DNA of 63,826 nucleotides, the filler included, from a candidate division TA06 bacterium SM23_40 (GTDB taxonomy: Bacteria > LJUI01 > SM1-40), in the NCBI GenBank assembly GCA_001303705.1. It is 5 parts of 5 records of this genome, joined end to end, with 100 filler letters (N's around TTAATTAATTAA, not from the genome) between each part and the next. Parts side by side here need not be neighbours in the genome. Positions count along the whole stretch, not along the records: positions 1 to 8,051 come from LJUI01000118.1; 4 more parts are not named here. The stretch is one strand, 5' to 3'. The position numbers and the translations under genes are program-made. Shown here in pieces: positions 1-57,118 of this stretch (position 1 is its first letter; every line of letters starts with the position of its first letter). Below the pieces are notes generated by a model. That model made no database searches. It was not told the DNA's origin and saw nothing but the letters and a program-made list of their open reading frames with translations.

Positions 1-1774
1 GTCCTGCATAGATGACCTGGCCGCCCATCTCGCCCGGGCCCGGGCCCAGATCGACGATGTAGTCGGCGGAGCGGATGATGTCGGCATCGTGCTCGACGAC
101 AAGAACAGTATTTCCCCGATCGGCAAGGCCGCGGAGCACTGAGATGAGTTGCCCGACGTCGCGGGGGTGGAGGCCGATGCTCGGCTCGTCCAGCACGTAG
201 AGGGGGTTCACGAGCGAGGTTCCCAGTGCCCTGGTGAGACTGATCCGCTCTGCCTCGCCGCCCGACAGGGTCCGGGACTGGCGGTCGAGCGTGAGATAAC
301 CGAGGCCGACGTCGAGGAGATAACGCAGGCGGCTCGCGATCTCCCCGATGATGAGGTTGGTCGCGTCGTCGTGGGGTCTGGATCCGCCATCGTGGAAGAA
401 CTCGTAGCAGCGGTCTATCGGCATTCGGTACAAGTCGGAGACAGTCTTTCCGCCGAGACGGTACAGGAGCGTTTCCTCCCTGAACCGGGTGCCGCCGCAC
501 ATGCTGCAGGTGCGGTAGGCGCGGTACTTGGAGAGGAGCACGCGGATGTGCATTTTGTAGCTCTTCGACACCAGCCACTCGAAGAATCCTTCGACGCCAT
601 AGAAATCCCGGGTCCCTTCCCAGATCATCTGTCGGTGCTTCGCGCTCAGGTCCGAGAAGGGTACATCGGTCGGGATATTGCGGCGCCGGCAGAAGCGGAG
701 CAGGTCGTCGGTTCCCTCTTCGAACGCCGGCGTGGTCCACGGCCTGATCGCTCCTTCCCGGAGTGACTTGGCTGGGTCCGGAATGACGAGTTCGGGATCG
801 ATCTCGATGGTGCGCCCGAATCCCCGGCAGTTGGGACAGGCTCCCAGGGGGCTGTTGAACGAGAAGAGGTTCGGCACCGGATCGCCATAGGAGATGTCGC
901 AGTCCGGACAGTGAAGGTCCTCGGAGAACGTCATCTGGCGGCTGCCGGACAGAACGACGATGATCTGCCCTCTGCCGTACCGGCCTGCGGACTCGAGAGA
1001 GTCGATGATCCGTGTCCGTTTCTTCCTGTCGAGCCGTATCCGGTCGAGGACGAGGACGAGCTGGGGATGAGTCCCCTGTGCGGCACGGGTCCGGCCAGGG
1101 GGGCGGGCCGTGCGCGTGGTACCGGCCCTGCGCCGGGTCCGGCGATCGGATCCGGAGAAGACGCCAGGCAGCGCCTTGCTCAGGATGGTCTGGGGGTCGG
1201 AGTTCTCCCTGAGGTCCAGGATCGTGGCGTCGACCCACAGGCGCACGAACCCCTGGCGTTGCAGTGCCGCTGCCAGATCGGCCGGATCGATCGAGGCCGT
1301 GACCGGCAGGGGGAAGGCTATGATGGCCTCTTCTCCCGGCGCGACATCTAGCAGCCTGTCGAAGACCCTCTCCGGAGTATCACGCGTCACCTCCCTGCCG
1401 CAGCCGCCGCAGTACAGCGTGGCCGCCCGGGCGAACAGGAGCTTCACGAAGTCTGTGATCTCCGTCATCGTACCCACCGTCGAGCGGGAAGTCTTGACCG
1501 GATTCGTCTGGCTGATGGCGATGGCTGGCGGAATGCCGGAGATACTGTCGGCCCGGGGCTTGTCCATGCGGTCGAGGAACTGGCGGGCATAGGGAGAGAA
1601 TGTCTCGACATACCGCCGCTGGCCCTCGGCGTACAGCGTGTCGAACGCGAGACTCGACTTGCCTGAGCCGCTCACTCCGGTGACGACGACGAGTCGATTG
1701 AGCGGAATATCGAGGTCGATCTGCTTGAGGTTATGTTGTGCTGCTCCCCGAATGGAGATGTGCTTCGATTGCAT
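1..1774 (-). CDS. uvrA: Excinuclease ABC subunit A, 5' part (runs off the window; start approximate)
   Basis: Absent from the ORF track. Manual minus-strand translation gives MQSKHISIRGAAQHNLKQIDLDIPLNRLVVVTGVSGSGKSSLAFDTLYAEGQRRYVETFS...SRSTVGT, a CxxC zinc finger, and ...EHDADIIRSADYIVDLGPGPGEMGGQV. Confidence 0.95.
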   Translation of the reverse strand, partial: MQSKHISIRGAAQHNLKQIDLDIPLNRLVVVTGVSGSGKSSLAFDTLYAEGQRRYVETFSPYARQFLDRMDKPRADSISGIPPAIAISQTNPVKTSRSTVGTMTEITDFVKLLFARAATLYCGGCGREVTRDTPERVFDRLLDVAPGEEAIIAFPLPVTASIDPADLAAALQRQGFVRLWVDATILDLRENSDPQTILSKALPGVFSGSDRRTRRRAGTTRTARPPGRTRAAQGTHPQLVLVLDRIRLDRKKRTRIIDSLESAGRYGRGQIIVVLSGSRQMTFSEDLHCPDCDISYGDPVPNLFSFNSPLGACPNCRGFGRTIEIDPELVIPDPAKSLREGAIRPWTTPAFEEGTDDLLRFCRRRNIPTDVPFSDLSAKHRQMIWEGTRDFYGVEGFFEWLVSKSYKMHIRVLLSKYRAYRTCSMCGGTRFREETLLYRLGGKTVSDLYRMPIDRCYEFFHDGGSRPHDDATNLIIGEIASRLRYLLDVGLGYLTLDRQSRTLSGGEAERISLTRALGTSLVNPLYVLDEPSIGLHPRDVGQLISVLRGLADRGNTVLVVEHDADIIRSADYIVDLGPGPGEMGGQVIYAG

Positions 1775-2269
1775 TGGCAACACCAGTTCTGTGGGACTCC
1801 CGCCCGCGTCAGCTGGTTGTCTCCTGAGGCTACCTGTCTGGTGCGCCCGGGCGTCCTGGGTGTGGGAATCGAGGGTCTCCTTGACGTTCTCTTGGACGGG
1901 CCCAGGAGTGCAGACGGCGGCGGCACGTGCGCGGTTCCGGTCTTCCTCTTCGTCCGCGTTTCCTGGGGCACCTCCGCCCGGGTGCTCCGGCCCCCGAGGA
2001 CGGAGAGGCGGAACAGCAGCCGGGCGACGTGCCCGGCCTGAGACGGATTCGGCAGCGCTCCGGGCGCTGCCGACCTCGGGGTACGGCCGTCGACATGATG
2101 ATGCACCAGGTCCGAGCAGGCTGTCAAGCGCCTTTCGGGCCTGTGGGGGTCCTCCAGACTCTGTTCCGGCTTCGGAAGGATCGGGAGGATTGTGCCAGAG
2201 GATTGCGTGATCATGACCTATGGAGACGGGAGGGGGAATGGAGATCGGTTTTTTGCCGAGGTTTCGTGC

Positions 2270-2298
2270 TTGACAGCGGCAGGAATTTGCGCTAGACT
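2270..2298 (+). promoter_or_regulatory. sigma-70-type promoter of selenoprotein paralogue 1
   Basis: TTGACA-17 nt-TAGACT; flanks TTCGTGC and TTTGCGC are shared with the promoter at 3767-3795. Confidence 0.65.
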
Positions 2299-2443: not shown

Positions 2444-3505
2444 ATGCGACTACTTGGCCTCGGTGTGGGAGCGATGATGCTCCTGGTTCTGGGCCTCGCT
2501 GTCATAGTCCCAGCCCAAGAGATATTTATCTGGGACCACGATAAGGGCGCAGACAACATGTTTTACGATCCAGAGGGCGCAGGCTACGTCGGGTGCGAGT
2601 TCGGGGTCCAGCGGGCCCTGACTCGGAACGGCTATACCCACGAGACGCTTCTCTATCTTCCTATGGATCTCAGCCAGTATGATGTGGTCTTCGTCATACT
2701 CGGCTGGTGGTGCTGAGCCGGTGCATCGACGATTGCTCCGGCGGAGCAATCTCGGTTGATGGAGTTCATGGATGCCGGCGGAAGTGTCTACGTGGAGGGG
2801 AACGATTTCGGTTACTCACACCGCTACGATCCGATCTACGAATACTTCGGCTGCACTTACACAGGGGACGGCAATTCCTCCTTCAATGTCGACCATCTCT
2901 ACGGAGAAGCGGGGACGATGCTGGATGGGAGGCATCTCCGGTATATGTACGGCCAGGGTCCCGATGTCTATGTTGACATGATAGAGAGCAATGGCGGCAC
3001 GATTCTGTTCCGCGACCAGATCAATGCCGGACGACTGATCAAGTGGGACGGTGAAGATCACGACTATCGCTCGATGCATTCCACATATGTGTTCGGCGCG
3101 ATGATCGATCAGACCCCCCCCGACACCAAGGATGATGTGATGGCCGCATACATGGGCTATCTCTTCCCGTCGGTCGTGGTGAATCTCGAGCCGGACGCGA
3201 CGACGATTCCCCAGGGTGGGACACTGGGCTACACGGCGACGCTCGTCAACAAGACCGACCAGCAGCAGACGATCTATGGACGGGCGAACGTGTACCTGCC
3301 CGGCGGTTCGCCGTTCCCGGGTAATCCCGTTGTGGCGCCGACTCAGGTTACTTTGAATGCCGGCGCGACGGTGACGGTGCACTACTCACATCCGGTGCCC
3401 GCGGGTGCTCCGCTGGGAGTGTACACGTATGAGGCGCAGGTGGGAGTGCCGCCGGCCAATCTGATCGATGACGATCTGTTTGAGTTCGAGATCGTGGCGC
3501 CGTAG
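2444..3505 (+). CDS. Putative secreted selenoprotein, 353 aa with UGA=Sec at codon 91 (GWWC-U); alpha/beta N-terminal domain plus shared C-terminal domain
   Basis: AAGGAGG RBS, ATG 2444, signal peptide. Track ORFs 2315-2716 and 2756-3505 are in the same frame, separated only by TGA 2714-2716. The paralogue has the same TGA. SECIS-like hairpin follows. Confidence 0.85.
2725..2756 (+). promoter_or_regulatory. Putative bacterial SECIS element (paralogue 1)
   Basis: Perfect 9-bp stem GATTGCTCC-GGC-GGAGCAATC (2731-2751); 23 nt between UGA and loop; lower stem ATCGA/TCGGT with a bulged C. Confidence 0.75.
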
Positions 3506-3766: not shown

Positions 3767-3795
3767 TTGACAGATTGCCGATTTTGCGCTATGCT
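3767..3795 (+). promoter_or_regulatory. sigma-70-type promoter of selenoprotein paralogue 2
   Basis: TTGACA-17 nt-TATGCT, homologous to 2270-2298. Confidence 0.65.
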
Positions 3796-3936: not shown

Positions 3937-4998
3937 ATGCGACGATACTACCTGCCAGTCGCAGCCATCGCCCTCATGACGATGGGCCTGGCTGCAATGG
4001 CGCAGACACAGGAGATACTCATCTGGGATCATGACACAGGTGCCGACAACATGTTCTACGACCCTGAGGGCGCGGGATATGTCGGCTGCGAGTTTGGCAT
4101 TGAGCGTGCGCTGGAGCAGAATGGCATTGAAGCTACGACCCTCCTCTATCTCCCGGCCGACCTCAGCCAGTACGATGCCATCTTCGTCGTCCAGGGATGG
4201 TACTGCTGAGGGGGCGGAAATCAGATTGGTCCGGTGGACCAAACACGATTGATGGAGTACATGGATAGCGGCGGAAGTGTCTACCTCGAGGGGAACGACT
4301 TCGGGTACCTCCACGCATACGATCCCCTCTATCCGTACTTCGGCTGCATCTATGTGGGAGATGGCAATTACTCTTTCAATGTCGACCACCTCTACGGCCA
4401 GCCGGAGACGATCCTGGATGGATTCCATCTCCGGTATATGTATGGTCTGGAACCCGACTACTATGTGGATGAGATAGCGGCTGATGAGGGCACGATCCTG
4501 TTCCTCTGCCAGCAGAACAAGGGCCGGGCGGTGAATTGGGATGGTGCCGGGCACGACTACCGCGCGATCCACTCGACGTTTGTCTTCGGTGCGATGATTG
4601 ATCAGATGCCGCCTGACACCAAGCAGGAAGTGATGGCAGTATATCTGGACTACCTCCTGCCTGAGGTCGTGATCGATCTGGCGCCGCAGGCGACGACGGT
4701 TCCCCAGGGAGGGACGTTGAGCTATGTGGCCGGGCTGACGAACAGGACGGATGAGGTTCAGATGGTCTGGGGACGCGCGAATGTGTACCTGCCCAATGGC
4801 AATCCGTTCCCTGGCAATCCGGTGGTACCGCCGACTCCGGTGACGTTGAATCCGGGTGCGACGGTGACGGTGAACTACTCACATCCGGTGCCTGCGGGTG
4901 CGCCGCTGGGAGTGTACACGTATGAGGTGCAGGTGGGAGTGCCGCCGGCGAACCTGATCGATGACGATCGGTTTGAGTTCGAGATCGTTGCGCCCTAG
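3937..4998 (+). CDS. Putative secreted selenoprotein paralogue 2, 353 aa with UGA=Sec at codon 91 (GWYC-U)
   Basis: AAGGAGG RBS and signal peptide. Track ORFs 3937-4209 and 4234-4998 are in the same frame, separated only by TGA 4207-4209. Collinear with 2444-3505 over the whole length. Confidence 0.85.
4219..4250 (+). promoter_or_regulatory. Putative bacterial SECIS element (paralogue 2)
   Basis: TTGGTCC-GGT-GGACCAA stem-loop (4226-4242); 23 nt between UGA and loop; lower stem AATC/GATT. Confidence 0.75.
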
Positions 4999-5466
4999 TG
5001 CATAGTGAGGGGCGATGCCCGTGGCGTTGGGGGGAGGCGCGGGTGTCGTAATAAGAAAGGAGAACGGGTTTCGGGGTGTTGGTCCCCGGGGCCCGTTCCG
5101 TCTTTGATGCGTGTGAGGTGCTGGCGCCTCGCGCGGATAGTACTTCTCGGCCGGGCGCGGCGAAACACATCCATAGGACGTGGGCGGTTGCCTTTCGTGT
5201 CTGGCACCAAGTCTACTTTCGATCCTACCATTGACACGTCCTCACCGGATCGCTACTATCGATCGGCCTCAATCTTCTGAGTTCGAGCTGACGGGATCCG
5301 CGTGCCGCTCATCTGCGCAACTACTATTGAACTCCACGGAAGTTCGGATTCGGTGAGCGCGGCACCATATGGGCGATGTGGGGCGTCAGGCTGAGTCCGT
5401 GCGAGGCGATTGCGCTGACGGGCAGAATGGCGCAGCGAACCTCGGAGAATGCGGGAGGACAGGGGA

Positions 5467-6441
5467 ATGGATTCGATCAACCTCGACCCGGCCATGTATG
5501 AGTCTCTTCTCCCGTGGCTTCTCGAGGGGGAGCCATGGGTGCGGTATCGCACGTTGACCGACCTGCTCCGGCGGAAGCCAGACGACTCTGAGGTCGAGGC
5601 GGCGAGGAATGCCGTGCCCGACCACCAACTGATCCGTCCGATCCTGGCTCGTCAGAAAAGGAACGGCTGGTGGGGAAGGAAGAAGGACCTCCACACCTGG
5701 TGGCCCAAGAACAATACCACATTCTGGCTCGTGGGGACCCTGGCGGACTTTGGCCTGACGATCGAGGACGAACACGTATCTCGGGCATGTGCATGCATAT
5801 TCGACACCCAACTCGAGAGCGGCGGATTCCTCGGCTATAATCCGGATCAGGCCGCTGACTGTCACACCGGCATCCTGACAGAGTCGTTGGCCAAGGCCGG
5901 GAAGATCGGCGATGCGCGCCTGGAACGCGCATACCGCTGGCTGCGTTCACGTCAGCGACTCGATGGCGGATGGTGGTGTAAGGATACCGGACAACCCGGG
6001 CGGCCGAGGGAGGCGGAGCCGAGCTGCGCCCTCGCGACGATGTTTGTGCTCGGCGCTTTCGCGCACCATCCTCGGCTGCAGAAGAGCGATGTGGCCCGGC
6101 GGGGAGTGGAGTTTATGCTCGGTTGCTGGGAGAAGCGAGGTACGATCAAGTATGCGGGCCACGATTCGCAGATCGGAACAAACTGGGGAAAACTCAAGTA
6201 TCCATATACGGACTACCGGATACTCAAGTACCTCGATGTCGTCTCGAGGTTCCCCCACGTCCGCGGAGACCGGAGGGTCCGCGAGATGGCCGGGATCCTG
6301 GTATCGAAGCGAGGTCCGGTCGGTCGATACACTCCCGAGTCGATTCACAAAGTGTGGCACAAATTCGACTTCGGACAGAAGAAGAATCCGTCGAGATGGA
6401 TCACGGCGCTAGCACTTGGTGTAGTGCGCCGCATTCTGTGA
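5467..6441 (+). CDS. Prenyltransferase/squalene-cyclase-repeat (alpha/alpha toroid) protein of unknown function
   Basis: QW-like motifs (ILARQKRNGWWG, FDTQLESGGF, WLRSRQRLDGGWWC) and C-terminal PSRWIT. Confidence 0.7.
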   Translation: MDSINLDPAMYESLLPWLLEGEPWVRYRTLTDLLRRKPDDSEVEAARNAVPDHQLIRPILARQKRNGWWGRKKDLHTWWPKNNTTFWLVGTLADFGLTIEDEHVSRACACIFDTQLESGGFLGYNPDQAADCHTGILTESLAKAGKIGDARLERAYRWLRSRQRLDGGWWCKDTGQPGRPREAEPSCALATMFVLGAFAHHPRLQKSDVARRGVEFMLGCWEKRGTIKYAGHDSQIGTNWGKLKYPYTDYRILKYLDVVSRFPHVRGDRRVREMAGILVSKRGPVGRYTPESIHKVWHKFDFGQKKNPSRWITALALGVVRRIL

Positions 6442-7339: not shown

Positions 7340-8051
7340 AGTCGATGATGGCCAGGGCGACAAGGGTGCTCTCACTCCTCATCGTGCTGCTTGTCTCCGT
7401 GCACTCCGGGAAGGCTCGCGCCCAGGAGGTGAGTCTTCCCGCCCCACGTGGATACGTGAACGACTTCGCGGACGTGATCTCGCCGGGCGATGAGTCGATG
7501 ATGGCCAACCTCGCCGGGGAGCTCGAGCGTGTGACCACGGCCCAGATCGCTGTTGTGACCCTCGAGACGACCCAACCGCTCGTGATCGAGGAGTTCGGTG
7601 TCAGGCTTTTCGAAGCGTGGAAGATCGGCCAGGCGGGGGAGGATAATGGACTCCTTCTTCTGTTTGCGCTTCAGGATCGCAAGGTGAGGATCGAGACCGG
7701 GTACGGGCTCGAGGGAGCGGTGCCCGACGCACTGGCCGACCGCATCATCCGGGACACCATGGTGCCGTTCTTCAGACGCGAGGAGTACAGCCAGGGCCTG
7801 CTCCAGGCGACGGTGCAGCTCGCCGACCTGGTCGCCCGCGAGTACGGGGTCGAGCTCGCCTCTCTGCGCTCCGTGCCGAGAGCAGTGCCTCCGCCGCCTT
7901 CGGCCGCGCGATGCGGACCCGGCCTCCTCACGCTGATCTTCTTCATGATCATTATGATACTCTTCGGCAGGCGAGGAGGTCTATTCTGGCTCTTGCTCTT
8001 CGGCCTGGGCATGGGGCGTCGTCCTGGCGGATACTGGTACGGGTCTGGTAT
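7336..8051 (+). CDS. TPM-domain (YgcG-like) membrane protein, 3'-truncated by gap
   Basis: GYVNDFADVI, WKIGQAGEDNGLLL, RIETGYGLEGAVPD; TM helix followed by the start of a Gly-rich tail. Confidence 0.9.
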
Positions 8052-8151
8052 NNNNNNNNNNNNNNNNNNNNNNNNNNNNNNNNNNNNNNNNNNNNTTAAT
8101 TAATTAANNNNNNNNNNNNNNNNNNNNNNNNNNNNNNNNNNNNNNNNNNNN
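8052..8151. other. Artificial contig linker
   Basis: N44-TTAATTAATTAA-N44 (stops in all six frames). Confidence 0.98.
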
Positions 8152-10265
8152 CCGAGTCGTTCATGAAGGCGGACTACGGGGCGATGGCCTATCTGTCGGC
8201 GGTCCAGCCGTCGTATACGATTCCGAACCACGACTTCGACAAGCAGCTGTATCAGGGTATCTACGATCTGGGGATCTGGACGATCGGGTATGCGGAGAAC
8301 CATGCGAATGCGTGGATCATCCCGGTGCACGGGTCCCTGGCCGAGGCGAACATACGGATGTATCTGTGGCTCGGGGATCCGGAGACAGATGTATGGACCG
8401 CGGTTCCCCAGGATATGACGGTCAGCTACCCGGCAGCGATCCCGATCGGCACGCAGCCCGTGACGGTGAGCGTGTCGATGGGAGGGAGCTCTGTCGAGGA
8501 TGCGCTCGTCTGTCTGTTGAAGCCGGGCGAGGTGTATGAGGCCGGGTATACGGACGCTGCGGGGCAGGTGACGCTGACGGTATCGCCCACGGTGCCCGGA
8601 CAGATGGCGGTGACGGTGACCGCCCACAACGGCCTGCCGTATACGGGGACGATACAGGTGATTCAGCCTGAGGGTCCATATATCATTCTCGACGAGTATC
8701 TGATCGACGACAGTGTCGGCGGCAACAATGACGGACAGGTCGATATCGGCGAGCCGATCAGGCTCCCCGCTGCGCTCAAGAACGTCGGCGTGGAGGCCGC
8801 TCAGGATGTCGATGCCGTGCTGGCGACCGACGATCCGTACATGACGATCAGCGACAACTACGAGTACTACGGGGACATCAACCCTGACCAGGTTGTCTGG
8901 TGCCCGGACGACTACGACTTTGAGGCAAAGGCGGTCTGTCCTGATGGCCATACGGCAGGGTTCTCGATCACAGCCGAGGACATCTACGATTCGACGTGGA
9001 CGAGCGCGTTCAACATTCCGGTGCACGCGCCGGTGCTCGCGTTTGAGTCGTACATCATCGACGACACCGGCGGCGGCAATGGCAATGGCCGTCTGGAGCC
9101 CGGAGAGACGGCGGAGCTGACGGTGACGCTCGCCAATGAGGGTTCGGGATTTGCTGCCTCGGTGGAGGCGACGCTCTCGACGATCGACCCGTATGTGACC
9201 GTGGTGAGCGGGAGTGCGAGCTACGGGAACATCGCTGCGGGCGGCACGGGCGTCGGTTCGCCGGCGTATGTGGTCGAGGCAGCGGCTACTGCTCCTGAGG
9301 GTCGTCAGGCGCAGCTCGATCTGACCGCGGAGGCGCAGGCCGGGTATGTGCGCTACGATGCCTGCTGGGTGACGGTAGGCGGCATCTTTGACGACATGGA
9401 GCAGGGGCCTGCCGGGTGGACGCACGAGGTGGTCACTCCAGGGTATTACGATCAGTGGCACCAGTCGACGGAGCTCAACCACACGCCCGGCGGTTCGGTA
9501 AGCTGGAAGTGCGGGGATACGGGTCCTGGCAACTATGCCGACTCGCTGGATGCAGGTCTGATGACGGTCGAGCTGATCCTGCCCGAGAATCCCGTGTTGA
9601 CGTTCTGGCACTGGATGGATGCAGAGGCATCGTCGATGTACCCTGACAGTGCGTACGACGGCGGTTTGGTCGAGATCTCGATCGACGGCGGGCTGAACTG
9701 GACCCAGATCATGCCTGAGGAGGGGTATACGCACGCGATCCGCCCGGGTTCGGACAACCCGCTGCCCGGTGGGACCATGGTCTACTCAGGTTCCTTTGGC
9801 TGGACGCAGGCCATGTTCGATCTGGCCGCCTATTCGGGGCAGACCGTGCAGTTCCGGTTCCGGTTTGCGTCTGACTGGGGGGTAAACCGTGAGGGCTGGT
9901 ATATCGACGATGTGTTGATCGCCGGTCAGCCAGCGGTGACGGTCATGGTAGAGCCTGATGCGTATGAGGTGCCGCGCGGCGGCACGCTCGGGTATACCGC
10001 GACGGTCCAGAACCTGAGCTCGTCAGCACAGAGCTTCTACGGTCTGATCGAGGCGTGGCTGCCGAACGGGTCACCGTACAGCGGGAATCCGCTTGTCGGT
10101 CCCCGGCCGGTGACGCTTGCTCCCGGCGGGAGCCAGTCTGTGCACCTGGAGCATCCGGTGCCGGCCGTTGCGCCGCTGGGTGAGTATCTGCTTCGGGTGA
10201 AGGTGGGGAATCCGCCTGCTGATCTTCTCGATCAGGACTTCTTCCATTTCCGAGTGGTTCCGTAG
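8152..10265 (+). CDS. Gingipain-like C25 peptidase, C-terminal part (5'-truncated), with Ig-like and MAM/InhA-like domains and the shared C-terminal domain
   Basis: YLWLGDP, VEDALVCL, VTAHNGLPY, repeated IDD..GNxxGxxxxGE motifs, VEISIDGGLNW, FRFRFASD..VNREGWYIDDV. Confidence 0.8.
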
Positions 10266-10585
10266 GAGGGCGGTGCTGACGTCGCGAATGAGATCAACGT
10301 TGACTTCGCTCTTCTCATGATGAGACAAGAGAAGTCATTGTGACGAACAGGGGCGCGGTACGAGGATCTGTGAGGGGGAAGAATCCTCGCCGCGCCCCAC
10401 AGTCCTCAAGACGGTTTGCAAGACCGGTGTGGCGCAGTAGCATCTGTCAAGATCGATTGTCGAAGTGGATCCGGCGTCCGATTTCGGGTCGTCACGCGGG
10501 GTCCGAGGTTGGTGGTTCCGCACAGCCGTCAGCGTAAGACGCTGGGGATGGTCGGCAGGGCACACGTTGATCATAGGAGGCTCAC

Positions 10586-11242
10586 ATGGCTGAGGCCGCG
10601 ACTAGTCCGGTGATCGAGGAGATCGTCGATTCCATTCTGTCTGTCCAGGGCGAGAGGACGTTAGAGCTGGTGCAGAAGGCCCTCGACCAGGGGGTGGACC
10701 CGATGACCGTCGTTAACGATGGGCTGACGTTCGGCCTGCGCCAGCTCGGGGAGAGGTACGAGCGGGGGGAGGCGTACATCCCTCACCTCATGATCGCCGG
10801 CGATGCCGTCGGCCGGGCGATGAAGATACTCGAGGTACATCTGCCGAAGGAGGCGCCGGGGAGGGAACGTCCCACCGTCCTCATCGGAACGGTCAAGGAC
10901 GATATCCATGATCTGGGCAAGAACCTCGTGGCCACGATGCTTTCTGTTTCCGGGTTTCGGGTGGTCGATCTGGGGAAGAATGTGAGTGCTGAGGCGTTCG
11001 TCGAGAAGGTGAAGGAGGTGAAGCCGCGGCTTCTCTGTCTCTCGGCTCTGATGACGACGACGATGCTCAATCAGCGCGCCGTCGTCGAGGCGCTCAAGGA
11101 GGCGCAGGAGCGGGAGGGCCTCAAGATCATGGTCGGCGGCGCCCCCGTCTCCGCGGAATGGGCGGAACAGATCGAGGCCGATGCGTACGCCGAGGATGCG
11201 ATGGAGGCGGTGCGCAAGGCGAAGGAGCTACTGGGTGTGTAG
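10586..11242 (+). CDS. Methyltransferase corrinoid (B12-binding) protein, MttC/MtgC-like
   Basis: DIHDLGKNLV (DxHxxG), LSALMTTT, IMVGGAP; GGAGG RBS. Confidence 0.92.
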   Translation: MAEAATSPVIEEIVDSILSVQGERTLELVQKALDQGVDPMTVVNDGLTFGLRQLGERYERGEAYIPHLMIAGDAVGRAMKILEVHLPKEAPGRERPTVLIGTVKDDIHDLGKNLVATMLSVSGFRVVDLGKNVSAEAFVEKVKEVKPRLLCLSALMTTTMLNQRAVVEALKEAQEREGLKIMVGGAPVSAEWAEQIEADAYAEDAMEAVRKAKELLGV

Positions 11243-11295
11243 CGTGTGTCGCTACGCGTGGCGTGTGTCGCTGCCCGTGGCGTGTGTCGCTACCT
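11239..11295 (+). repeat. 3 x 19-bp tandem repeat starting at the corrinoid gene stop
   Basis: GTRGCGTGTGTCGCTRCNY units at 11239, 11258 and 11277. Confidence 0.8.
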
Positions 11296-11437: not shown

Positions 11438-12955
11438 ATGGCGAGAGAGACGACGCAGGGTGACGAAGTGCGAACCGAGGGGCGCTCGGTGCCGCGGAGG
11501 CCGCGCCTCTCTTTGCTTGAGCGATCAACCATTGAGCGGATCGTCGATGAGGCGCGCGAGCTCTTGCAGTCAGTCGGAGTCATCGTCGAGGAGCCCGAGG
11601 CGTTGGATCTGTTGGCAGATGGCGGCGCTGAGGTGGATCTTGAGCAGAAGCGGGCCCGCCTCACAGCACCGATGGTGGAGAAGGCCCTGGCGACGGTTCC
11701 CCGCCGCGTCGAGCTATTCGATCGTGCGGGCACGGCAGCGGTCATCTATGCCGGCGACAGGGTGCAGTTCGATCCGGGATCGGCTGCCCTCCATGTGCTC
11801 GATGCCGATACGCGTCGCATCCGAAAAGCGACGACCGAAGACATCATCTCCTTCGCGAAGCTCGCCGAAGGCCTGGATGAACTCGATGCCCAGAGCACAG
11901 CCATCATCGCCGCAGACGTCCCGGAGGCGATCGCGGACAGCTATCGCCTCTACCTTCTGCTGCAGTTGACGGAGAAACCGATCGTCACGGGTGCGTTCAG
12001 CGGCGAGGGGCTGCTGGTGATGCATCGTCTTCTGGCCGCATCCTCAGGAGGTGAAGGAGGGCTGAAGGCGCGGCCGAGGGCCGTGTTCGATGTCTGTCCG
12101 TCACCTCCTCTGCTCTGGAGCCAGGCCACCTGCCGCAATCTGGTCGACTGTGCCCGCTTCGGACTTCCCGCCCAGCTCGTCTCTATGCCGCTGGCCGGCG
12201 CCACCGGCCCTGTCACGCTCATCGGCGCGGTGACCCAGCATGCTGCTGAGAACCTGAGCGGGATCGTCATCCACCAGCTCGCATGCCCGGGCGCCCCAAT
12301 TATCTGGGGGGGGTCGCCGGCCATCTTCGACATGCGCGAGGGGACGACGCCCATGGGCGCGGTGGAGACGATGATGATCGACTGCGCGTACGCGGAGGTG
12401 GGCAAGCACTTCGGCTTACCCACCCACACGTATATGGGATTGAGCGATACGAAGGTGCTCGACATGCAGACCGGGCTCGAATCAGGGATGGGCACGGTGC
12501 TTGCGATCCTCGCCGGGATAAACCTCGTCTCTGGGGCGGGCATGCTCGACTTCGAGAGCTGCCAGAGCCCGGAGAAACTCGTCGTCGACTGCGAGATCAT
12601 CGGCATGGCTCGTCGCCTGTCGGCCGGGCTGGCGATGCGGGACGAGGAGCGCGTGCGGTCACTCTATACGGAGGATCACAACACGACCTTTCTCACCCTC
12701 GAACATACGCTGAGGTGGCTCAAGGATGAGCAACGCATTCCTTCATTCATTATAGATCGTGCTGGTCGGCGGAGGTGGGAGGAGCGCGGCGGCACTGACG
12801 TAGTCGCGCGGGCCAGGAAGCGGGTGCAGGAACTCGTCGACACGTACGAACCGCGTCCCCTGTCGGGCGAGGTGATGAGTGAGATCGAGAACATTGTGCG
12901 GAGCGCGGCGGCAGCAGCCGGTGCAGAGCGATTGCCCGGGAGTACGATCGAGTAG
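11438..12955 (+). CDS. mttB: Trimethylamine methyltransferase (MttB) superfamily, non-pyrrolysine type
   Basis: MPLAGATGPVTLIG, AENLSG, PGAPIIWG, GLSDTKVLDMQTGLE, SGAGMLDF; no in-frame TAG. Confidence 0.9.
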   Translation: MARETTQGDEVRTEGRSVPRRPRLSLLERSTIERIVDEARELLQSVGVIVEEPEALDLLADGGAEVDLEQKRARLTAPMVEKALATVPRRVELFDRAGTAAVIYAGDRVQFDPGSAALHVLDADTRRIRKATTEDIISFAKLAEGLDELDAQSTAIIAADVPEAIADSYRLYLLLQLTEKPIVTGAFSGEGLLVMHRLLAASSGGEGGLKARPRAVFDVCPSPPLLWSQATCRNLVDCARFGLPAQLVSMPLAGATGPVTLIGAVTQHAAENLSGIVIHQLACPGAPIIWGGSPAIFDMREGTTPMGAVETMMIDCAYAEVGKHFGLPTHTYMGLSDTKVLDMQTGLESGMGTVLAILAGINLVSGAGMLDFESCQSPEKLVVDCEIIGMARRLSAGLAMRDEERVRSLYTEDHNTTFLTLEHTLRWLKDEQRIPSFIIDRAGRRRWEERGGTDVVARARKRVQELVDTYEPRPLSGEVMSEIENIVRSAAAAAGAERLPGSTIE

Positions 12956-15274: not shown

Positions 15275-16693
15275 TTAGAGGGTGAAGTAGTCTTTGAAGT
15301 CGGGATCGAATCCCTTGGGCCAGTACTCTCCGGTCACTGAGTTGAGGGAGTACTCCCCCTTGTATTTCCCCCGCACAATGTCCCGTAGCGCGGTGATGAG
15401 CGTGTCGATCTCCTCGACCGTGTTGTAGATGCCAAAACTGACACGGACCATTCCCGGTATCGATGATCGGTCCCCGCGCAGGATGTCGGCGATGACCATC
15501 CGTACCTCGTCGGGCGTGAGGTGAAGAAGGCGCTTTACGTAGGGATGAGCGCAGAAACATCCGTTGCGGGTGCCGATGCCGTACTCACAGCTGAGGATCG
15601 CGGAGACGAGGGCGTGGGGGAGGTCACCGAGGGTGAAGCAGATGACTCCGAGGCGGTCGCGGTCCAGGGAGGGGAGGCCGTACAGGACGAACCCTTCCAC
15701 CTCGGTCATACGGTCGAGGGCGTATCGGGTCAGCTCACGCTCGTGCTCGGCGATCGTCTCCAGGTCTATCTGTTGGAGTGTCTCGATCGCCCTTGCGAGC
15801 GCGACGGCGCCGACGACGTTTGGCGAGCCCGCCTCCTCCCGGTCCGGAAGTCCTGCCCAGTGTACCTGATCCGGTGTGACGATGGAGACCGTGCCCCCAC
15901 CCACGTAGTCGGGGTCGCCCTGCTCGAACAGGACGCGCGGGCCGATGAGGGCGCCGGTGCCGAAGGGAGCGTACATCTTGTGGCCCGAGAGAGCGACGAA
16001 GTCGAGGTGTTGAGGATCGCCTTCCGGCTTCACGTCGATCGCCCGGTGTGCGGCGAGCTGTGCCGCGTCGACGAGAATCGGGGCGCTTACTTTGTGCGCC
16101 TGATCGGCGATCTCGTGGATAGGGGTCAGACACCCAGTGACGTTCGATGCCCCGCTCACTGCGACGAGCGCCACGCGATCTCCGTACTTGTTGAGCTTCG
16201 CCTGCAGATCATCGAGGTCGAGCTCTCCGTTATCATGGACGAGCACGTGTTCCACGTGCGTCTGCTGTCTCCAGGGCAGGTCGTTCGAATGATGCTCGAG
16301 AAGGGTGGAGATGACGACGGAGTCGTTGTTGAGGGGGATGCGCCGCGAGAGCTTGTTGATGGCTTCGGTTGTATTCTTACCGAAGATGACGGTATTTCGC
16401 TCCGGGTCCGCGCCGACAAAGGAGGCTACGCGCTTGTGCGCCTCCTCGTACGCGTGGGTGGCGACTTGCGACTTGAAGCCGGCCCCACGATGCACACTTG
16501 AGTACCACTCCAGGAACTTCGTGACCGAGTCGAGGACCGGCCTGAGGGCCGGTGTGCTCGCGGCGTTGTCGAAGTTGATGTACTGCCGGAGCGAACCGTC
16601 GAGGACGGGCACCCGGGTTTCGATTCCGACGATCTGTGAACGGAGGTCCGTGATATGGAGGGTGGCGTGTCGGGCCTTTGTCGTATCTACCAT
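15275..16693 (-). CDS. Class V PLP enzyme (cysteine desulfurase/selenocysteine lyase-like, SufS/CsdA type)
   Basis: NFDNAAST, VHRG, EHHSNDLPW, VDAAQ, SGHKMYAPFG, EAGSPN, RNGCFCAHP; start at 16693 or 16756. Confidence 0.9.
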   Translation of the reverse strand: MVDTTKARHATLHITDLRSQIVGIETRVPVLDGSLRQYINFDNAASTPALRPVLDSVTKFLEWYSSVHRGAGFKSQVATHAYEEAHKRVASFVGADPERNTVIFGKNTTEAINKLSRRIPLNNDSVVISTLLEHHSNDLPWRQQTHVEHVLVHDNGELDLDDLQAKLNKYGDRVALVAVSGASNVTGCLTPIHEIADQAHKVSAPILVDAAQLAAHRAIDVKPEGDPQHLDFVALSGHKMYAPFGTGALIGPRVLFEQGDPDYVGGGTVSIVTPDQVHWAGLPDREEAGSPNVVGAVALARAIETLQQIDLETIAEHERELTRYALDRMTEVEGFVLYGLPSLDRDRLGVICFTLGDLPHALVSAILSCEYGIGTRNGCFCAHPYVKRLLHLTPDEVRMVIADILRGDRSSIPGMVRVSFGIYNTVEEIDTLITALRDIVRGKYKGEYSLNSVTGEYWPKGFDPDFKDYFTL

Positions 16694-33377: not shown

Positions 33378-33477
33378 NNNNNNNNNNNNNNNNNNNNNNN
33401 NNNNNNNNNNNNNNNNNNNNNTTAATTAATTAANNNNNNNNNNNNNNNNNNNNNNNNNNNNNNNNNNNNNNNNNNNN
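33378..33477. other. Artificial contig linker
   Basis: N44-TTAATTAATTAA-N44. Confidence 0.98.
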
Positions 33478-41374: not shown

Positions 41375-41474
41375 NNNNNNNNNNNNNNNNNNNNNNNNNN
41401 NNNNNNNNNNNNNNNNNNTTAATTAATTAANNNNNNNNNNNNNNNNNNNNNNNNNNNNNNNNNNNNNNNNNNNN
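41375..41474. other. Artificial contig linker
   Basis: N44-TTAATTAATTAA-N44. Confidence 0.98.
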
Positions 41475-49206: not shown

Positions 49207-49387
49207 GCGAACCGCAAATGGAAGCCGGGGCAGGTGAAGCCATGAGCGAGCCGCAAATGGAAGCCGGGGCAGGCGAAGCGATGAGTGAACCGCAAATGGA
49301 AGCCGGAACAGGTGNNNNNNNNNNNGGTGAAGCCGTGAGCGAACCGCAAGCGGAAGCCGGGCAGGTGAAGCCGTGAGCGAACCGCAG
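49178..49387 (+). repeat. 39-bp tandem repeat (about five copies, 11-N gap inside) duplicating the delta/alpha gene junction
   Basis: AATGGAAGCCGGGGCAGGTGAAGCCGTGAGCGAACCGCA-type units starting at 49178, 49217, 49256 and 49295. Confidence 0.9.
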
Positions 49388-57018: not shown

Positions 57019-57118
57019 NNNNNNNNNNNNNNNNNNNNNNNNNNNNNNNNNNNNNNNNNNNNTTAATTAATTAANNNNNNNNNNNNNNNNNNNNNNNNNN
57101 NNNNNNNNNNNNNNNNNN
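57019..57118. other. Artificial contig linker
   Basis: N44-TTAATTAATTAA-N44. Confidence 0.98.

Follow-up and report, generated by a model that had tools for sequence, protein, structure and literature searches.

Putative SECIS elements in two tandem genes of an apparently uncatalogued family of exported selenoproteins in a candidate division TA06 bacterium

The selenocysteine insertion sequence (SECIS) of Escherichia coli fdhF is a hairpin in the coding region whose apical loop, with G and U, is bound by SelB. The upper part of this hairpin suffices, and its distance from the UGA must be fixed; its loop is of 4 nt, and a bulged U is present in the upper stem. The consensus for bacterial SECIS elements (bSECIS), as summarized in the legend of Fig. 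2 of a 2026 review (PMC13188914), comprises a loop of 3–9 nt on an upper stem of 4–16 bp, a G in at least one of the two leading loop positions, mostly with G or U after it, a distance of 16–37 nt from the UGA, and a minimum free energy (MFE) of −7.5 kcal/mol or lower. Table 1 of the same source lists 119 families of prokaryotic selenoproteins, almost all of which carry an identifier from Pfam, NCBIfam or CDD, and CU, CxxU and UxxC (U being selenocysteine, Sec) appear there as motif types of known redox or metal-binding selenoproteins. Here, we describe two short hairpins, each located behind an in-frame UGA codon in one of two tandem genes, in a stretch of 63,826 nucleotides of the candidate division TA06 bacterium SM23_40 (GCA_001303705.1; five parts of five records joined end to end, hereafter the window). 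We consider it highly probable (roughly 0.88) that these hairpins are genuine bacterial SECIS elements and that the two paralogous genes belong to a widespread, apparently uncatalogued family of exported selenoproteins.

Like the fdhF element, the window hairpins lie within a coding region, but they differ from it in having a triloop and no bulge, and they share no sequence similarity with it. Compared with the bSECISearch consensus, to the extent that it is given in PMC13188914, both window hairpins conform to all four criteria. They are stem-loops within an open reading frame (ORF) just 3′ of the UGA, with a stem of 7–9 bp, a 3-nt loop starting with GG, a spacing of 23 nt, and an energy of −7.5 kcal/mol or lower, and they show no departure from the model as set out there. 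Across the family as a whole, the hairpin is unusually compact and uniform for that model, with a helix of 6–7 bp, nearly always a triloop, and a modal spacing of 23 nt.

Two tandem genes with an in-frame UGA and a downstream hairpin

Each of the two genes (coordinates in Table 1) contains one in-frame TGA, and translation with this codon read as U yielded a single frame of 353 residues for both paralogues. A Cys codon directly precedes the TGA in both (…LGWWC-U-AGAS… in paralogue 1 and …QGWYC-U-GGGN… in paralogue 2). A previous, sequence-only reading of this DNA had proposed a SECIS-like hairpin after the UGA of paralogue 1 with a counterpart in paralogue 2, both loops starting exactly 23 nt after the UGA, and all of this was confirmed. 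The stem of hairpin 1 consists of nine perfect Watson–Crick pairs, and that of hairpin 2 of seven contiguous pairs (4226–4232 with 4236–4242), followed by an A·A mismatch and then a basal G–C pair. The energies of the hairpins alone were −12.3 and −8.3 kcal/mol, respectively.

The same reading had pointed to one stem pair that is C–G in gene 1 and G–C in gene 2. This swap is present: GCT is replaced by GGT (Ala to Gly) in the 5′ arm and GAG by GAC (Glu to Asp) in the 3′ arm, the peptides being IAPAEQ and IGPVDQ. The pairing is kept by this swap, as had been stated; the A·A mismatch, which is the second-outermost pair of paralogue 2, had been passed over. One covarying pair between two paralogues is weak evidence. 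When the UGA plus 57 nt of paralogue 1 was folded, an MFE of −27.1 kcal/mol was obtained (z = −3.0), and 2 of 200 shuffles folded as well. A longer lower helix extends down to the UGA in this fold; it is missing from the MFE fold of paralogue 2 and is therefore not a feature common to both genes.

The window contains eight triloop hairpins with a perfect stem of 7 bp or more vs. 5.8 ± 2.2 in 30 shuffles, and one (hairpin 1) with 9 bp or more vs. 0.47 ± 0.72. The window hairpins are unremarkable when taken alone, so that the argument depends on how they compare with those of relatives. Judged from sequence comparison, it is their placement after an in-frame UGA, together with conservation throughout the family, that lifts them above chance.

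The UGA and the hairpin across the family

An exhaustive profile-free search returned 1391 representative proteins at E ≤ 1e-3. Among the best 150 of these, many started just after query residue ~101–115, as post-UGA fragments, and three proteins of ~90 aa ended at the site (P0034, …GWFC; P0099, …GIYCVG; P0110, …GWC). Stop-free proteins with CxxC were also among the best 150 (P0012, WCTGCG; P0017, WCLSCS; P0023, WCIGCG; P0114, WCFSCD), as were others that span the site with neither a stop nor a Cys there. Scanning of genome contigs with a single-protein query gave no relative; loci were later recovered with an alignment-based query. A stop was present at the site in 26 of 29 metagenome loci and in all six genome loci, which came from a Phycisphaerales metagenome-assembled genome (MAG), two WOR-3 MAGs, a Calditrichaeota MAG with two loci, and one uncultured bacterium. 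For the WOR-3 phylum (272 genomes), 29 of the best 30 loci had a stop and the remaining locus was unaligned over the site; the search profile covered the post-UGA part only, and stops were located afterwards with tblastn. The phylum of the Calditrichaeota locus (79 genomes) gave 30 loci, 13 with a stop, 16 without and 1 unaligned. A further phylum (70 genomes) gave 28 loci, 26 with a stop, 1 without and 1 too short, so that 26 of the 27 aligned loci have the UGA. As stop-free controls, 20 paralogues from WOR-3 genomes were taken, 11 of which aligned over the site.

After removal of identical sequences, 95 distinct stop sites and 31 distinct non-Sec sites were retained. The stop was TGA at all 95 sites and never TAA or TAG, and the frame was kept across the TGA throughout. 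The in-frame UGA is thus conserved in metagenome contigs and in WOR-3, Calditrichaeota, Phycisphaerales and the further phylum. The Sec motif was C-U at 47 of the 95 sites and CxxU at 20, followed by C-U-x-x-x-C (13), C-U-x-x-C (10), UxxC (3) and other arrangements (2). In the alignment, the full-length proteins P0012, P0017 and P0023 have CxxC where the CxxU forms (CVGU, CPGU) have their Sec motif.

Among the C-U type homologues, one (GWWC-U-GGGG; L028:3202–3243) was found on a metagenome contig, its protein being 43% identical. It has a hairpin of 10 bp whose GGA loop lies 26 nt beyond the UGA, and its extended fold of −27.1 kcal/mol is the same as that of paralogue 1. The DNA of another locus (L003) is identical to paralogue 2 around the site. 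Since both loci belong to the same contig series, the organism may have at least three copies.

All sites were subjected to one fixed search for consecutive Watson–Crick or G–U pairs closing a loop of 3–5 nt that starts 14–33 nt after the site codon. At least six pairs were found at 89 of the 95 UGA sites vs. 4 of the 31 non-Sec sites, and at least seven at 64 of the UGA sites. The hairpin is thus kept in UGA-containing homologues and is not equally present in those lacking Sec, both of which had been set as checks on the SECIS proposal. Of 14,912 in-frame pseudo-sites in the same genes, taken for the first 58 sites and leaving out ± 60 nt around the real one, 13.5% reached at least six pairs. 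The stretch of 42 nt that follows the UGA also folded more stably than equivalent stretches of the same genes, with a mean of −9.5 vs. −7.0 kcal/mol (Mann–Whitney p = 7e-10). The bSECIS consensus, taken from the part of PMC13188914 quoted above and applied to the MFE fold of the UGA plus 57 nt, was passed by 82/95 UGA sites vs. 3/31 non-Sec sites; when the perfect stem alone was scored (first 70 UGA and 30 non-Sec sites), it was passed by 35/70 vs. 1/30.

The 89 hairpins correspond to 60 distinct cores of 19 nt, in which pairing extends through pairs 1–7 and falls to background at pair 8 (13/60). The first loop base, although loop sequence was not a search criterion, is G in 59 of the 60 cores (GGC 20, GAU 11, GUC 9, GGA 5, GGG 4, GUU 4, GUA 3, GUG 2, GGU 1, CAG 1), and the spacing from UGA to loop is 15–26 nt with a mode of 23 nt (61/89 sites); these core, loop and spacing tallies come from sites selected for at least six pairs. 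The peptide encoded over the hairpin varies (IAPAEQ, IGPVDQ, LGQADQ, FSQYER, PGSVGT, ASRIGS, TVGSTE) and pairing is kept.

An alignment without gaps (MAFFT) was obtained for 42 distinct sequences that share the main register. Of the cells in this alignment, 78% were paired vs. 62.6% in shuffles, and the seven inner pairs were formed in 35–42 of the 42 sequences. Changes on both sides were seen in eight of the nine pairs. The covariation score was 0.427 vs. 0.144 ± 0.018 in shuffles, none of 500 shuffles scoring as high, and it was 0.065–0.137 when the 3′ partners were slid by 1–3 columns. Some compensations combine a synonymous with a non-synonymous change, as in Ile ATT/Gln CAA to Ile ATC/Arg CGA and Ala GCT/Glu GAG to Ala GCA/Val GTG. 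Selection on the peptide would hardly account for such combinations. The earlier suggestion of selection on RNA structure is upheld by this covariation and by the family-wide conservation of the hairpin.

In 11 further sequences, MAFFT places the hairpin at an offset of 2, 4 or 8 nt relative to the homologous codons. These shifted registers occur in the CVGU subfamily and in some WOR-3 subfamilies, where the hairpin is built from non-homologous codons and still lies 15–21 nt from the UGA. In the CVGU subfamily it is formed by the codons for PGSVGT, two codons upstream of the hairpin codons of the window, and the loop is 21 nt from the UGA.

Homologues without Sec provided a comparison within the family. 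In the close orthologue L134 (~1711–1794), from one genome of the further phylum, the site reads ATG GGT ATG TAT ACC GGC AGA GCT GAT AAC AAT, and relatives have …ACC TGT TGA GGA GAC AAC AAC, so that Cys-Sec-Gly is replaced by Gly-Arg-Ala (TGT TGA GGA to GGC AGA GCT). The hairpin codons ATC GCT CCG GCG GAG CGA are changed to ATA GGC TGG TCA GAG CGG (IAPAER to IGWSER), and the best remaining stem has 3 bp. From its sequence, this locus looks like a natural joint loss of Sec and SECIS. Ten homologues of the Calditrichaeota phylum have a Cys codon aligned at the site, and nine of them have stems of 2–4 bp; the tenth (motif C-G-T-C) has 6 bp with the loop CCTT, without the loop G. Three Cys-less non-Sec homologues (L020, L024 and L027; motif PFTG/PYTG) showed a different kind of stem. 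Two of them have a G–U-rich stem of 7–8 bp with the loop ACAU 28 nt after the aligned codon, and in the third a 7-bp stem requires a loop of 6 nt. These stems are without the loop G and fail the bSECIS criteria, and they could be a chance occurrence or a relic.

The encoded protein and the selenocysteine machinery

The AlphaFold2 model of paralogue 1, built from a 58-row alignment, had a mean predicted local distance difference test score (pLDDT) of 91.8 and a predicted template modelling score (pTM) of 0.82. It shows a low-confidence N-terminal helix, a signal peptide by eye (MRLLGLGVGAMMLLVLGLAVIVPAQ), a flavodoxin-like alpha/beta domain (~26–240), and a C-terminal Ig-like beta-sandwich (~244–351). 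Residue 91 is positioned within one domain, in the loop between strand 81–85 and helix 99–110. The pLDDT was 86–97 in blocks around this residue, and both sides were folded as one chain. Foldseek neighbours included the oligosaccharyltransferase subunit OST48/Wbp1 and GH42 beta-galactosidases (E 1e-10 to 1e-9, ~330–415 aligned columns). What these proteins, in the case of GH42 the post-barrel domains, have in common with the window protein is an alpha/beta domain followed by a beta-sandwich; they differ from it in that identity is 9–16%, the template modelling (TM) score is ~0.4, the window protein has no glycosidase catalytic barrel, and none of them is a selenoprotein. The GH42 post-barrel domain has what we take to be a class I glutamine-amidotransferase-like fold.

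Neither P0001 nor P0002 had an NCBIfam 20.0 match at E ≤ 0.1, and the sole Pfam-A match of P0001 at E ≤ 1 was LapA (E 0.28, 12 bits), far below the cut-off. Sorting domains of the type IX secretion system (T9SS) were found in relatives (Por_Secre_tail, CHU_C, FlgD_ig). The C-terminal beta-sandwich of ~110 residues (3173–3505 and 4666–4998) had no Pfam match of its own, and it recurs at the extreme C-terminus of many far larger proteins in the representative library, for example with ends at 947/951, 936/937, 608/608, 1200/1200 and 882/882. This position is what we would expect of a sorting or anchoring domain. The public annotation starts after the UGA, where P0003 (248 aa; ‘hypothetical protein AMJ71_03450’) occupies 2756–3505 of the window. 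Protein libraries contain many post-UGA fragments as well as pre-UGA fragments of ~90 aa from this family, and the truncation is therefore systematic and the whole family mis-annotated.

Comparison with the catalogued CU, CxxU and UxxC families, as listed in Table 1 of PMC13188914, showed a single Sec next to or near a Cys and the same motif types as common features; Cys-containing homologues exist for the window family too, with Cys aligned to the Sec in the case of the CxxU forms. The window family differs from them in its lack of a Pfam or NCBIfam model match, in a flavodoxin-like rather than thioredoxin-like fold, and in its signal peptide and the T9SS sorting domain of relatives. By analogy with known selenoproteins, the Cys-Sec pair is most likely a selenenylsulfide redox or metal-binding site.

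Five related genomes with a UGA homologue were examined for the Sec machinery. SelA was over the cut-off in all five, and among 14 control genomes only in E. coli. SelB was over the cut-off in four of the five, and the same four had a tRNA-Sec of 70–76 bits. In the fifth genome, a MAG of 1.9 Mb, the SelA match ends at position 321 of the 455-position model. In one WOR-3 genome (G003, contig C34), selA (8032–9384) adjoins selB (9414–11291), and the tRNA-Sec (15342–15431) lies 4 kb away on the same contig. By its gene arrangement, C34:8032–15431 is a putative compact sel locus. SelB binding, Sec insertion and the chemistry of the protein are what we infer, as is a Sec machinery in the organism of the window itself.

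Table 1. Positions, along the whole window, of features belonging to the two tandem genes
Feature	Position	Strand	Details
Paralogue 1, putative selenoprotein gene	2444..3505	+	353 codons, ATG 2444, Sec codon 91, stop TAG 3503–3505
Paralogue 2, putative selenoprotein gene	3937..4998	+	353 codons, Sec codon 91, 70% identical to paralogue 1
In-frame UGA of paralogue 1, probably read as Sec	2714..2716	+	motif W-C-U-A-G
In-frame UGA of paralogue 2, probably read as Sec	4207..4209	+	motif Y-C-U-G-G
Candidate SECIS hairpin 1	2731..2751	+	5′ arm GATTGCTCC 2731–2739, loop GGC 2740–2742, 3′ arm GGAGCAATC 2743–2751
Candidate SECIS hairpin 2	4224..4244	+	5′ arm GATTGGTCC 4224–4232, loop GGT 4233–4235, 3′ arm GGACCAAAC 4236–4244
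Sigma-70-like promoter match upstream of paralogue 1	2270..2298	+	TTGACA-17-TAGACT, consensus match only
Sigma-70-like promoter match upstream of paralogue 2	3767..3795	+	TTGACA-17-TATGCT, consensus match only
Strong intrinsic-terminator-like hairpin after paralogue 2	5062..5098	+	15 pairs, then T-rich tail

Around the two genes, the window encodes UvrA (2–1783, minus strand), a secreted-looking protein with squalene-hopene-cyclase-like repeats (5449–6441), and a further secreted-looking protein with C-terminal pieces of gingipain-type Peptidase_C25 and with MAM-like and CARDB domains (8163–10265). A protein with a B12-binding domain (10586–11242) is followed by a trimethylamine-type methyltransferase of the MttB family (11438–12955; Pfam E 9.5e-81). 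Other TGA-interrupted frames in the window amounted to 89 candidates, nearly all of them spurious overlaps in GC-rich DNA, and no candidate outside the two genes was a credible gene with an adjacent Cys and a stem of 7 bp or more closed by a G-first triloop. The N content of the window is 363, consisting of pairs of 44-N runs 12 bases apart (8052–8151, 33378–33477, 41375–41474 and 57019–57118) and a single 11-N run (49315–49325).

Alternative explanations and meaning of the finding

The palindrome could be a by-product of a conserved peptide (I-A-P-A-E-Q and the like) and of codon usage, with no role at the RNA level. This would fit a hairpin that lies in coding sequence beside a conserved [ED]-Q motif shared with non-Sec homologues, a frequency of ≥7-bp hairpins in the window about as high as in shuffles, and the occurrence of ≥6-bp stems at four non-Sec sites. 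We regard it as very unlikely, given that pairing is kept over 60 distinct cores whose peptide varies widely, that synonymous third-position changes compensate for changes in the partner, and that subfamilies carry the hairpin in different codon registers. The nearly invariant G at the first loop position and the non-Sec homologues that have the same [ED]-Q context without a hairpin also argue against it.

It is highly improbable, too, that the UGA is a true stop dividing a 90-residue peptide from a separate 248-residue protein, with the hairpin serving attenuation, mRNA stability or translational coupling. Public gene calls (P0003–P0006, 248 aa) do begin after the UGA, and the representative library holds the two sorts of fragment already described; yet the exclusive use of TGA, the frame kept across it at every distinct site, and the full-length stop-free homologues that span the site are not what such a division predicts. 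The model, moreover, folds both sides of codon 91 as one chain, and the downstream piece would be without a signal peptide. No intrinsic terminator was called on the sense strand at either hairpin and no T-run follows either of them; the sole terminator call at these sites is on the minus strand, at hairpin 2. Reading of the UGA as Trp or Gly, by a lineage-wide code change or by near-cognate read-through, is conceivable insofar as some uncultivated bacterial lineages reassign UGA; a 2026 publication deals with UGA-to-Trp. TGA is the commonest ordinary stop in the window, where it ends 28 of 54 long ORFs, and the genetic code is therefore standard and UGA not reassigned. With a single in-frame TGA in each gene, adjacent or close to a Cys in all cases, and with SelA, SelB and tRNA-Sec in related genomes, this explanation is barely credible.

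Several points weigh against the interpretation of the hairpins as SECIS elements. The folding check that singled out paralogue 1 did not do so for paralogue 2, where the UGA plus 57 nt had an MFE of −12.1 kcal/mol (z = −0.2) and 80 of 200 shuffles were as good. Six of the 95 UGA sites are without a stem of at least 6 bp, and −7.5 kcal/mol, the threshold quoted from PMC13188914, was reached by only 35/70 family hairpins when the perfect stem alone was scored. The shuffle-based covariation statistics overstate independence and significance because the sequences are related, and the alignment was anchored on detected hairpins, which favours structure. The control for absence of the hairpin without Sec consists of non-Sec homologues other than the CxxC forms P0012, P0017, P0023 and P0114; the searches of the Calditrichaeota phylum and the further phylum yielded Sec forms along with forms that have one Cys or none. 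Among the relatives collected, no homologue has Cys at the exact Sec residue of the C-U arrangement found in the window, and Sec/Cys pairing was seen only for CxxU subfamilies. Within the window, a tRNA scan found no tRNA and there was no Rfam match at gathering thresholds.

If the hairpins act as SECIS elements, a ribosome arriving at the in-frame UGA would meet a hairpin still folded ~14–16 nt downstream. SelB carrying Sec-tRNA(Sec) would bind the top of this hairpin, where a G-G/U-N triloop closes a short helix, and would deliver selenocysteine to the UGA, so that termination by release factor 2 would be avoided. The product would be a secreted protein of 353 residues with a Cys-Sec pair in a loop of its flavodoxin-like alpha/beta domain.

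SECIS elements as such are well known; the novelty lies in the family, in the phyla where it occurs, and in the clear picture of how a SECIS is retained, shifted and lost inside a coding sequence. Unlike nearly all of the 119 families in Table 1 of PMC13188914, this one matches no Pfam or NCBIfam model; it therefore appears uncatalogued and would add a family to that list. Full-text literature searches found no relevant work linking selenoproteins with WOR-3 or type IX secretion, or selenocysteine with TA06. The main text of the BSepDB publication has no mention of WOR-3, TA06 or Calditrich, and the supplementary tables of deep-Sep and BSepDB could list the family.

The compactness and uniformity of the hairpin, the shifts in its register, and the Sec-to-Arg revertant without a hairpin offer a clean comparative case in which RNA structure, and not the peptide, is selected. 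A broader proposal, to which we give somewhat less than an even chance, is that in this uncatalogued, widespread and exported family (signal peptide; T9SS domain in many members) the Sec position and the SECIS hairpin have both been remade several times, the hairpin in no fewer than four registers and always 15–26 nt from the UGA with a G-first triloop. If true, the family would provide a natural series for how a recoding signal arises, moves and disappears inside a coding sequence, and it would suggest that anaerobic sediment bacteria carry out selenium chemistry on their cell surface or beyond it. The family places Sec use in poorly known phyla, and by analogy the Cys-Sec site on an exported alpha/beta domain suggests that selenium-based redox or metal chemistry may take place outside their cytoplasm.

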